NCBI GenBank assembly: GCA_965222605.1
Contig: OZ244960.1
Location: forward strand, 672,001 to 736,000
Direction of reading: 5' to 3'
Length of the DNA: 64,000 bases
DNA from: Candidatus Latescibacterota bacterium
GTDB lineage: Bacteria > Latescibacterota > UBA2968
A program made the translations under genes and the position numbers. The notes beneath the pieces were generated by a model that had not been told where the DNA came from, did not search any database, and saw only the letters and a list, made by a program, of their open reading frames with translations. This document shows positions 40,218-43,200 of the stretch, one piece after another. How positions within the stretch are numbered: the stretch's first letter is position 1; each line of letters begins with the position of its first letter.

Positions 40218-43200
40218 TTAATCGTCTATCGGCAACCCCACAAATAACCGGCTATACTCATCCGTCAACGGATCGCGCTCGCCCTTTTGCGCTGCGCGGG
40301 CAAATACCACACCCGGCGTTTCCGACCTGCGTGCCCGCGCCAAAACGCCATACCCACCGGGCGCACTCTGCGTCTCCAGATCGCCCTGAATCGCTATCAT
40401 CTCTGCCAGCGCATTGGCCAAACCCCAGCGCGCACCAATCGCCCGCGCAAAAAGCTCCTCTGGCGTCAGCCCCTCCCTAAAACCGTGCTTCAGAGGCGTA
40501 AACTCACCCTGATCATTTCGCGTCACGCCCTGAGGAGCCACATACAGCCTGACTTGCTGCCAATTGGCACGCGCACCACATTCCACCAGAAGCGCGGGAA
40601 TCCCGAGTTCATCATCGTCATATCCGCGAAATCGAGCCAACACAGCCGACACCTCATCGGGATAATCGCGCCAGACATCTGGATCATCGCCCTCTGGCGG
40701 ATCGGGACAATCAAGCGACAAACCGATAAAAGCACTCATCGATGCCCCTGTCTTGCGCGCGACATCAAAACCCCGATCCCACAATCGCGTAGCCAGATCC
40801 AATGCAGCCTTCGCACCATCGCGCGCCATCGCATCCGCCATCCAGCCCATCACCTGATACTTATCGACAAACAACCCCTTTCGCTCAACCTCATCGCCGA
40901 CAATCGACGCAATCTCCTGCAACCCCTCATCCGTCATACTCATATACGCCAGGCCAAACAGCGCGTCGTGCATCGGGTGTACCTTCTCCCGTGCAATCAG
41001 CCCCGGATCCCGATTCAGATGCGCCACTGCCGACAGATGCGCCTCAGCCGACCGCTGGCCTACTTCAGTCACCGGCACAAAAATCGCCACCTGATCGCCA
41101 TCAAAATCCAAATTCATCATCTTGCAAATCGCCACACACACGCGAATTGCATCACCTTCCACGCGCACCGGACGACACGCCACAAAAGCCATTGGCGAAA
41201 ACGCGGGATTGCGAAGCACAACAGTCCATAACCCAGCCATAGCCGCATCCAGAGCTTCCTCCGCTTTTCTCGACCGCCTATCCACTTCTTCAGCCCCCAC
41301 CTCTCGCGCAGCAAACGGCCCAAACAATGTCCATGCCATTTCCTCGGGCACACCGACCTGATCGTATCGCAATTCGGGCGCAGGCGCAGCCACCGAACGC
41401 CCGCTGAACAACGCATGCGCCTGAAATTGCAAACGCGACAACTCGCAAAATGCGCGAACCCGCTCAGATAGCGTTTCAACCGCGCGATCCACCAATATAT
41501 CTGGCGCGCCATTGGCAATCATCTCACTCAAGCGGTCATTGGCCTCCCGCAATGCGCTGGGCACATCTCTCCCGCTCACATGTGTCAACGAATGCCCCGG
41601 CAGCCACGGATGCGGAACCGAGCGCGCAAGCGCGACATCCCCATCGCGTTTCAACGAAAACTCTACGCCGCGTTCATCCAGCGCAACTGCCACTCCACCT
41701 TTTGACAAATGCCCAATTAGATCATCAAACTGAGGGGACGGCGCAGTGGGGACAACAGATCCTGCAACGACGCGGTCAGATAGGGTATCAGCATCGTCTC
41801 GATCCACCGCGCACGTATTGAACAAATCGCCAATCACCCCAAAAGCACCCACTTCTCGCAACGCCAAAAACTCTGTCTCACCCAACCCTTGATCGCGTTG
41901 ATCCGGCTTCACACCCATGTGAATTTTATCTGCGGCCAGATGCAACGTGCGCCCCCAATACACCCACCCCACAGTGGTGCGACGCGGCAGCGTTTCCCCA
42001 TTTAGCGTCAGCGTCTCCATGCCATCTTCTGCCAGCCCATTAGCACTCAAACGAGTGCGTATCTCATCGTCTTTCGGCGCACTGAGCACGGGAACAATAA
42101 CCGGCTCTCCCTCGGCTTTTGCAATGCGCCCGGCCACAGCTTCACGCACCTGCCCAATATTCAACCGCGACGGCAAACCACACACACTCACAATCAGTTC
42201 CACAGGCGTGCCATCCGACAATTTGGGCATCTCTTCATCTTTCACAATGCGCGACACCACACCCTTAAAACCGTGTCGATTGCTCAGTTTATCGCCCGGC
42301 GCAACGCGATTGGGCAACATCATCCGGTTCGCAGCGGACTCACTAATCACAAGCGCGTCTTCGTGCGCATCCCCATTCCACGCCATAAACGCGGTCAGCA
42401 AATTGTACCCCGTCCAAAAATGCGGATCGCGCGGTTCACACCCCGTTTGCACCAACGCGGGTTCCGACTCCAGCGCTTTGCCGTCATATTGCGCGTGATA
42501 CATATGCCACACGCCCTGCTCATCGCGCTGCATATCGGGTCCCGGAGCACCAATCCACTGTCGCATCATATTCACACCCATCAAAACGCGATTGGTATCA
42601 TTGTGTTCCAAAAACGGAACCACCGAAGCACCTATGCCCAGCCGCTTTTTAGGGGCATCGTCTTCAATCACCAGTTTGCCATCGCGAATAGTCGCCCCCT
42701 GAGCCACCTCTAAAATCCGCGCGAGATTCGGTCCCTCAGGCGTGCAATAAGGACACACGCGCCCATCGTGTGACGGATGATAGTAATTTTCTATCCCCTC
42801 ATCGGCCTCACCAATAATTGGGATCAACGTCACCCGCCGCAAATGAACGTGCATATCCTGCCAATTGGTCGCCTGCAAATACTGAGAGGTCGGTTCTTCC
42901 GTAAAAAACGCATAAATCCAATCTCCCAACGGCATCCATGTTTCAACTGCTTCTCCCAGCAGTTCTGGCATATTTTCCAACCGCTCGGCAATATAATCGC
43001 GCACTTGCTCGCCCACACACCGAATTTCAGCGCACGCCAAATCCACCTCAGTCGGCGCGGGAACTACCGTTCGAAAAAAGCCATCCACTTTAAACCGCCC
43101 CCATTCATCGGGCTGAGGGATATTTTTGTACACAACCTCTTGTCCGCCCTGAACCGCGAGATGCAATTCACAGGTGTACTCATCCACCGACATCACCCGA

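Follow-up and report, generated by a model that had tools for sequence, protein, structure and literature searches.

A chromosomal single-chain beta/beta′ RNA polymerase paralog of Latescibacterota that keeps the clamp helices and is encoded with an ECF-type sigma factor

Can a sigma factor direct an RNA polymerase (RNAP) that has kept the clamp helices of the beta′ subunit and lost the flap of the beta subunit? This question is raised by a gene in a 64,000-nt stretch of contig OZ244960.1 from a Candidatus Latescibacterota bacterium (positions 672,001 to 736,000). The whole stretch is called the window below; coordinates are those of the window, and all window features named here lie on its reverse strand (-). 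An earlier reading of the DNA letters, called the sequence-only reading here, had singled out one peptide of the gene product as the clamp helices. The segment is indeed the clamp coiled-coil of the beta′-derived half of a chromosomal, 1028-amino-acid (aa), single-chain RNAP paralog, which is called mini-RNAP below. Its gene is the last one of an operon opened by a dedicated sigma gene of the extracytoplasmic function (ECF) type, which stands behind a conserved ECF-type promoter. Together, polymerase and sigma may constitute a transcription machine that is promoter-specific, minimal by nature and not yet described.

Clamp helices in a single-chain paralog

The clamp helices, i.e., the coiled-coil hairpin of beta′, occupy residues 584-620 of the mini-RNAP (41448..41558), of which the sequence-only reading had picked out residues 588-620 (41448-41546). 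A BLASTP comparison with the RpoC of the same genome, referred to as host beta′, gives one colinear high-scoring segment pair (E 4e-23) that begins at N590, corresponding to host position 272 in the clamp-helix segment. With phmmer against the PDB, residues 586-622 fall on positions 347-383 of M. tuberculosis beta′; taken alone, this piece is weak (2.6 bits), and it depends on its colinearity with two strong pieces. When a profile of 67 family sequences is compared by hhalign with 17 diverse canonical beta′ N-terminal parts, the alignment (Prob 100, E 8.7e-49, 392 columns) begins at the clamp helices, with family position 583 at host 262, and places the segment there and not elsewhere. AlphaFold2 (AF2) predicts helices at 584-598 and 603-620, which form a helical hairpin homologous to and colinear with the beta′ coiled-coil. 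Within the family the hydrophobic core of the hairpin is conserved (L593, L597, L605, A609, L613, V617 and Y620), as are the A601-P602 tip (P602 in at least 90%) and the ‘AN.RL.R’ motif of helix 1. The match to the clamp helices, together with the deletions described below, is far beyond chance.

The mini-RNAP gene (40218..43307) encodes a beta-to-beta′ fusion. Residues are numbered throughout from TTG 43307 (protein P0001, 1029 codons). The true start is likely ATG 43304, as judged from the sequence, because the ribosome binding site (RBS) GGAGG at 43315-43311 is better spaced for this codon than for TTG 43307 and because the resulting product of 1028 aa has the length of the closest homologs. 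Along the chain, the Pfam domains Rpb2_3 (142-200), Rpb2_6 (best stretch 335-464, E 1e-39) and Rpb1_2 (698-754, E 3e-14) follow one another. The NCBIfam models for rpoB (TIGR02013, E 2e-50) and rpoC (TIGR02386, E 3e-30) match with 171.4 and 104.7 bits, below their cut-offs of 801 and 963.5. The best NCBIfam matches are the fused beta/beta′ models NF011417 and NF007172, which share the order of beta followed by beta′ in one chain, while the scores fall far short of full-length fused content (171.6 vs 4632 bits and 161.3 vs 5372 bits). This domain order and scores so far under the cut-offs indicate a single-chain fusion of about one third of the size of both subunits. Canonical rpoB and rpoC genes are present as well, approximately 420 kb away in the same 6.34-Mb genome, and the mini-RNAP is therefore an extra paralog. 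Its PHROGs matches are solely to beta- and beta′-type families, and the PADLOC defence-system models return no family for it.

The predicted structure agrees with a polymerase fold. On the alignment of 67 family sequences, AF2 gives a mean predicted local distance difference test (pLDDT) of 94.8 and a predicted template modelling score (pTM) of 0.93. The beta half superposes on second-largest RNAP subunits of bacterial, archaeal and eukaryotic origin with Z ~30 and a root-mean-square deviation of 2.4-2.5 Å over 513-524 residues, and among the Foldseek matches are beta and beta′ chains with E values between 1e-24 and 1e-20. NLDFDGDQ (residues 732-739; 41091..41114) carries the catalytic Asp triad for Mg binding and lies in the beta′ double-psi barrel, within the Pfam Rpb1_2 match. 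In the 67 sequences, which show 33-59% identity, G338, R344 and G346 are invariant, and D339, K340, N343, H345, K348, G349, D734, D736, G737 and D738 are at least 90% conserved. The protein thus has what marks the two-barrel (double-psi beta-barrel) RNAP superfamily, i.e., two such barrels, one with the DxDxD triad and the other with conserved basic residues (K340, R344 and K348). The bridge helix (residues 949-980; 40368..40463) is an AF2 helix that hhalign aligns with the canonical bridge-helix region. Two short insertions, at residues 162-169 (42801-42824) and 254-277 (42477-42548), are peculiar to this protein and a few others, since only ~0-10% of the 67 family members have residues there.

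Deleted regions and distribution of the family

Both catalytic double-psi barrels are kept in the mini-RNAP, as are the bridge helix, the clamp helices and the N- and C-termini of beta; excised are the beta2 lobe, the flap, the beta′ zipper, the Zn-binding domain, the lid, the rudder and the trigger loop/jaw. On the beta side, the retained N-terminal segment (residues 9-83; 43059..43283) aligns locally by hhalign with positions 26-149 of the RpoB of the same genome (host beta; Prob 92, E 5.6e-7). The next block starts near host beta 390, leaving host 150 to ~390 unaligned, and because the aligned blocks make this jump the beta2 lobe is absent, as the sequence-only reading had suspected. That reading had also estimated that only about 14 residues stand in place of the flap. 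The linker between EDALVISE (residues 316-323; 42339-42362) and GDK (338-340; 42288-42296) counts exactly 14 residues (324-337; 42297..42338), while approximately 257 residues separate the same motifs in host RpoB, where BLASTP passes from query 323 to 334 by skipping host 768 to 1025. With phmmer against the PDB the flap gap spans 795-927 in 8i23_C and 823-1070 in 6wmp_C, and the family profile shows the same gap when aligned by hhalign to 16 canonical beta sequences (Prob 100, E 9.2e-77). The flap domain and the beta2 lobe, both defining for RpoB, are thus missing.

The beta′ half starts at residues 558-582 (41562..41636) with a PVPHPW motif, which aligns locally with host beta′ 101-125 (hhalign, E 0.0037). 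H566, P567 and W568 of this motif are conserved in at least 90% of the family and match the motif that comes right after the invariant Cys cluster (C66/C68/C81/C84) of beta′. Since the beta′ half begins only after the Cys cluster, the zipper is absent, and so is the Zn-binding domain, whose loss the sequence-only reading had rightly noticed. Host beta′ 126-261, which contains the lid, is without counterpart in the family. Directly after the clamp helices, a short remnant (residues 621-632; 41412..41447) stands where the rudder and part of switch 2 (host ~306-330) are deleted; the gap is seen by hhalign and by BLASTP, which skips ~40 residues of the host RpoC at the rudder position. The beta′ alignment stops at the bridge helix, with only ~50 residues to follow. 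The last 55 residues match the beta′ C-terminal conserved region marginally (local hhalign, E 0.021), and this region is also the best match of the conserved C-terminal motif at residues 998-1024 (40236..40316; mean conservation 0.69). As the bridge helix is followed by the C-terminal region, ~520 residues with the trigger loop and the jaw are missing. Of the features that define RpoC, neither the Zn-binding domain nor the trigger loop is found.

These deletions characterize a family and not a single gene. A word-indexed protein search gave 810 proteins with E <= 1e-3 among 8000 scored, and 113 of the 120 best database matches extend over the full length, with 1002-1068 aa, a coverage of 99% or more and identities as low as 43%. 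Relatives with a name are few; they are called ‘hypothetical protein’ and come from metagenome-assembled genomes of Gemmatimonadota, Armatimonadetes, Hydrogenedentes and Chloroflexi. An exhaustive search of 50% cluster representatives yielded 8439 matches at E <= 1e-3, 333 of them at E <= 1e-30; scores there are 470-1373 bits for full-length members of the family and ~220 bits for canonical fused subunits, and ~65 representatives at 33-60% identity are full-length. The family alignment used here consists of P0001 and 66 representatives of 928-1101 aa, with shorter fragments and chains of more than 1900 aa excluded. The deletion boundaries are alike across the family.

Within the phylum, the mini-RNAP gene occurs in 65 of 168 genomes, including all 20 of the window's genus, and 66 of its 67 places are free of internal stops. 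In plasmid and phage collections only partial matches of the canonical rpoB type were found, and no family member. Three genomes of one genus (G159, G165 and G166 in our labelling; L034:6732-10274) have a mini-RNAP frame of 1180-1244 aa that matches only from residue ~280 on, and its N-terminal part is therefore replaced or strongly diverged. At three loci of two other genomes (L022, L023 and L024 of G042 and G071) the sigma/mini-RNAP pairs stand amid several transposase genes (DDE, rve, Mutator and IS1595). These surroundings and the presence of two pair copies in G071 hint at mobility of the module. A full-text literature search found no published description of the family; Iyer and Aravind 2012 (J Struct Biol), which was beyond the reach of this search, may bear on its novelty. 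The main text and one supplement of the ECF reclassification paper contain no term for an RNAP-domain neighbour.

The linked sigma factor, its promoter and the operon

The partner gene (45243..45848, likely start TTG 45848) encodes an ECF-type sigma factor with regions 2 and 4, an assignment based on Pfam, TIGR02937 and orthology. Its longest open reading frame begins at 45875, within the -10 element of the promoter described below. The product contains Pfam Sigma70_r2 and Sigma70_r4_2 and scores 123.2 bits with TIGR02937 (cut-off 42.9), which places it in ECF group 4. Members of this sigma family have ordinary ECF region 2 and 4 motifs and, between them, an acidic linker with invariant P121 and W123.

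Both genes are closely linked. The window sigma (45243-45875), searched against the 168 phylum genomes at E <= 1e-25, has orthologs in 64 of them. Both genes are present in 62 genomes and neither in 101; three have the mini-RNAP only (G143, G146 and G149), and two the sigma only, namely G156, where the contig ends, and G021, a marginal match of 36% identity. A sigma ortholog stands upstream on the same strand at 64 of the 67 mini-RNAP places in the 65 genomes. The gap between the genes is at most 300 nt at 46 places, with a median of ~20 nt, and 362-2395 nt at 18 others; in four of these 18 the RNAP match starts only at residue 280, and ~12 hold an inserted gene. At four loci (L026, L029, L033 and L036) the stop and start codons of sigma and mini-RNAP overlap by 4 nt, and the genome with two pair copies (G071) has a sigma gene beside each. 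Among 15 divergent loci, 11 have an ECF-type sigma directly upstream on the same strand, as detected by Pfam on the open reading frames of a simple caller, which missed the gene in the other four. Of 80 related loci that were kept, selected with patterns that fit canonical rpoB too, four are true family members (two Latescibacterota records, one of Poribacteria and one of Caldilineaceae), and each of the four is immediately preceded by a gene of the same sigma family, whose product shares 40-50% identity with the window's sigma. The identities of sigma and RNAP run parallel, i.e., 78/78, 82/82, 69/65 and ~50/47. Among 126 neighbouring proteins scanned, no other gene is conserved beside the pair, an anti-sigma gene included. 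The sigma-RNAP pair has thus been inherited together across several phyla. In one genome (G041) a 481-aa protein with ECF sigma regions 2 and 4 and ankyrin repeats is encoded ~0.7 kb downstream of the mini-RNAP gene (L021:5834-7279, -).

The sigma gene is preceded by an ECF-type promoter (45871..45896), in which a -35-like TGAACC (45896-45891) is separated by 13 nt from a -10-like CGGTGTC (45877-45871); the sigma RBS GGAGG follows at 45860-45856. The consensus ahead of sigma is TGAACY-N13-CGGYGTC. The pattern TGAAC[CT]-N13-C[CG]G[TC][GC][TC]C is present ahead of sigma at 14 of 16 loci, and at 12 of these 14 its distance to the conserved coding start is 20-27 nt. The 16 loci stand for about ten independent lineages, as several are near-duplicates. 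One of the two missing loci, the second copy in G071, has a match 254 nt upstream. Among the genomes with matches listed, 29 of 30 module carriers have one just upstream of sigma, and G065 has none. The sequence-only reading had held that promoter recognition, if any, must be non-canonical. In this form the claim is not supported, as the linked sigma has a conserved -35/-10 ECF promoter of ordinary appearance. The degenerate pattern is found in 142 of the 168 phylum genomes at 1-3 copies each, so that its position before sigma is discriminating and its count is not, and module-free genomes, e.g., those of genus g10, have it at conserved sites as well. The promoter geometry is therefore that of an ordinary ECF promoter. 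Looser motifs in the window's own genome occur at chance level (6 vs 4-5 in shuffles; 53 vs 70-81), and no regulon can be defined from them. In genus g1, a second, near-identical match (in the CGGCGTC form) lies at another locus in at least 11 congeners, e.g., G072:C1:1569901-1569926 and G073:C1:67263-67288. This match may mark a second target or part of a conserved coding sequence; the strict pattern is not present there in the window's own genome.

In the window the operon is bounded on both sides. A terminator-like hairpin of 12 pairs with a T run (45901..45928) insulates it from the upstream genes, and another of 16 pairs with a T run (40160..40196), 22 nt past the mini-RNAP stop, forms its end. 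Between sigma and mini-RNAP lies an ABC exporter gene (43347..45140; Pfam ABC_membrane and ABC_tran), which would be co-expressed with the pair. This insert is found in this species and ~10 congeners and is absent from the pair in many other congeners and in all other lineages examined; in six congeners (G074, G076, G078, G083, G086 and G090) sigma lies 17-38 nt from the RNAP gene. RNA-library contigs from three studies, 90-95% alike and thus from relatives, extend over the genes for RNAP, ABC exporter and sigma. One of 3694 nt covers 40228-42985, one of 2421 nt spans the 5′ part of the RNAP gene and the ABC gene, and one from a close relative joins 43320 to 45268. Because DNA can occur in such libraries, this cover is a weak hint of transcription only.

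The surroundings of the operon hold some further genes. Just downstream of its terminator, 36976-40070 contains a BlaI-type repressor gene followed by that of a 902-aa BlaR1 peptidase M56 protein with five TonB_C repeats, which have a sigma-70-like promoter match of their own at 40134-40106. Upstream of the insulating terminator, 45952-47926 encodes two proteins, one of 345 aa with a DksA/TraR C4 zinc finger at residues 43-77 and one of 315 aa without family match; neither is conserved beside the pair elsewhere. At 48988-50755, a gene for an MjaI-type restriction endonuclease adjoins one for an N6/N4 DNA methylase, likely a type II restriction-modification pair.

Possible mechanism, alternatives and known systems

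How could such a pair work? In the reading that we prefer, and to which we give roughly even chances, the co-encoded sigma is bound through its region 2 to the retained hairpin and forms with the mini-RNAP a minimal holoenzyme for ECF-type promoters, with region 4 doing without a flap tip and catalysis without a trigger loop. Docking of region 2 on the clamp helices is suggested by the gene linkage, the translational coupling, the parallel divergence of both genes and the conserved motif of the sigma linker. Sigma and mini-RNAP would then constitute a two-protein promoter-specific RNAP that melts DNA and starts at promoters of the TGAACY-N13-CGGYGTC type, its own one included. Because there is no flap tip, region 4 would be free or held otherwise, by family-specific surfaces; candidate holders are, in the sigma factor, the invariant P..W of the linker and, in the mini-RNAP, the motifs conserved at its two termini. 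Catalysis without a trigger loop would resemble that of YonO-type enzymes. That sigma and the 115-kDa single-chain core are moreover self-sufficient, as a two-polypeptide promoter-specific RNAP independent of the main enzyme of the cell, appears possible, with the balance tilted slightly against it.

A number of findings weigh against sigma binding by the mini-RNAP. All multisubunit RNAPs have retained clamp helices, also the archaeal and eukaryotic ones, which use no sigma, so that their retention alone is not diagnostic. Helix 2 varies within the family on its exposed face, which is invariant in the 17 canonical beta′ sequences (N290, E291, K292, R293, Q296 and D300), and residues 571-630 have a mean conservation of 0.39-0.40 compared to ~0.5 for the whole protein. 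According to the accessible text of PMC8321222, R275, E295 and A302 of E. coli beta′ are necessary for binding of sigma region 2.2, the R275Q, E295K and A302D variants being defective. With E. coli positions taken as host positions plus 4, from the BLASTP and phmmer alignments, the equivalents of these three residues are A589 (A in 70% of the family), A609 (A in 60%) and R616 (variable), and the sigma2.2 contacts are thus not conserved. The proposal of the sequence-only reading that selection preserved sigma binding is therefore upheld in part. The family-wide ECF sigma gene upstream and the 4-nt overlaps give it strong contextual support, and conservation mapping finds the hydrophobic core, the AP tip and the helix 1 motif kept; the exposed face of helix 2 and the sigma-contact positions are not. 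A complex prediction for mini-RNAP residues 281-1029 with sigma, both entered as alignments, scored 0.27 against a mark of 0.32 and was counted neither way. On the side of sigma, the ordinary ECF region 2.2 motif is retained, and since the promoter geometry also occurs in module-free genomes, this sigma could have the host core as its partner. The strict motif occurs once in the window's own genome, at sigma, compared to 1-2 occurrences expected in shuffles.

The same findings suit a different division of labour, which we consider unlikely, in which the host core is the only partner of sigma, whose role is confined to switching on the mini-RNAP gene, while the mini-RNAP initiates without sigma, e.g., on single-stranded or nicked templates, and keeps its clamp helices because they serve its structure, contact nucleic acids or bind a NusG-type factor. 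The ordinary form of the promoter, the typical region 2 and 4 motifs and the unconserved contact residues are all in line with this, a strict motif found solely at the own operon promoter is as in a small autoregulated ECF regulon, and elements that hold the downstream duplex DNA and sigma region 4 have been deleted. A regulator and its target, however, need neither translational coupling over 4 nt nor identities that track each other so closely, and would not require an invariant motif in the sigma linker. Nor would they call for a sigma of its own beside each of two copies in one genome, and no separate anti-sigma gene is conserved beside the pair. Anti-sigma genes usually sit downstream of sigma in classical ECF operons, and this is the position that the mini-RNAP gene occupies. 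It may be asked, then, whether the mini-RNAP is mainly a sigma sink, which binds sigma in an anti-sigma-like way via its core-like clamp helices and so limits sigma on the host polymerase. The coupled start and stop codons and the lack of another conserved partner gene would fit, but a sink has no need of ~1000 residues that form two barrels and a bridge helix, of an Asp triad and basic residues conserved at 90% or more, or of a confidently predicted fold with an intact active-site cleft, and the sigma-contact residues are not conserved. We regard this role as highly improbable. That the gene is a functionless, decaying relic of a duplicated or fused rpoBC, with random deletions, has nothing but the large deletions themselves in its favour. 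It is effectively ruled out by the conservation of the family, with its full-length matches and cluster representatives, frames without internal stops at nearly all places, uniform deletion boundaries and presence in every genome of the genus.

If the pair is indeed self-sufficient, it would be the smallest natural sigma-dependent polymerase, and clamp helices and two barrels would suffice for sigma-directed initiation without flap, Zn-binding domain, lobes or trigger loop. If it works as in the preferred reading, the family would be a natural experiment on the minimum polymerase for this process, a question that to our knowledge has so far been approached only via engineered deletions. Many environmental bacteria (65 of the 168 phylum genomes and at least three other named lineages) would possess a second, private transcription system, and the pair would offer a compact subject for structural work and possibly an orthogonal transcription module for synthetic biology. 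Even if sigma only regulates the gene, bacterial chromosomes encode a conserved beta/beta′ enzyme without trigger loop and flap to which no role has been assigned so far.

Among known systems, the canonical RpoB/RpoC core with an ECF sigma is the obvious reference. Both halves of the mini-RNAP are homologous to it, with the same catalytic motifs, bridge helix and clamp helices, and in both cases a factor with sigma2 and sigma4 and a -35/-10 promoter are associated with the polymerase. However, the mini-RNAP is one chain of 1028 aa compared to ~2600 aa in two chains and is without flap, beta2 lobe, Zn-binding domain, zipper, lid, rudder, trigger loop and jaw; no conserved alpha or omega partner genes lie near it, and the residues of its clamp helices that would contact sigma are substituted. 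The natural beta-beta′ fusions (NF011417 and NF007172) likewise have beta and then beta′ in one polypeptide, but they are complete (~2840-2890 positions) and replace rpoB/rpoC, while the mini-RNAP has about one third of their size and is an extra copy. Judged by the features that define these proteins, the mini-RNAP is neither RpoB, nor RpoC, nor a full fusion protein.

Two systems outside the cellular enzymes, compared here by their descriptions, come nearer in form. YonO, from the Bacillus prophage SPbeta, is an active single-chain two-barrel RNAP of ~100 kDa without trigger loop, which is efficient but error-prone and has no cleavage activity, as given in the accessible text of PMC5467207. 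Like the mini-RNAP, it combines a single chain and two barrels with the absence of trigger loop and flap. It differs in that YonO has few catalytic residues in common with multisubunit RNAPs, whereas the mini-RNAP is easily recognised as beta/beta′, and in that the accessible part of the same paper, which leaves it undecided if YonO requires a factor for promoter recognition, describes no sigma partner. Orf6 of the yeast linear (killer) plasmids is an Rpb2::Rpb1 fusion of 982 aa, in which about half of the coding sequence is deleted, according to the accessible text of PMC2919709. The order of the halves is the same and the size similar. In contrast to the mini-RNAP, it is an enzyme of a eukaryotic plasmid with eukaryote-type ancestry, for which that text describes no sigma, and it retains a flap-type insert, as far as the accessible part of PMC7824862 goes. 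By analogy, the architecture of the mini-RNAP would be closest to that of the Orf6 Rpb2::Rpb1 fusion and in spirit to YonO, while in its way of working it would most resemble a stripped-down ECF holoenzyme.

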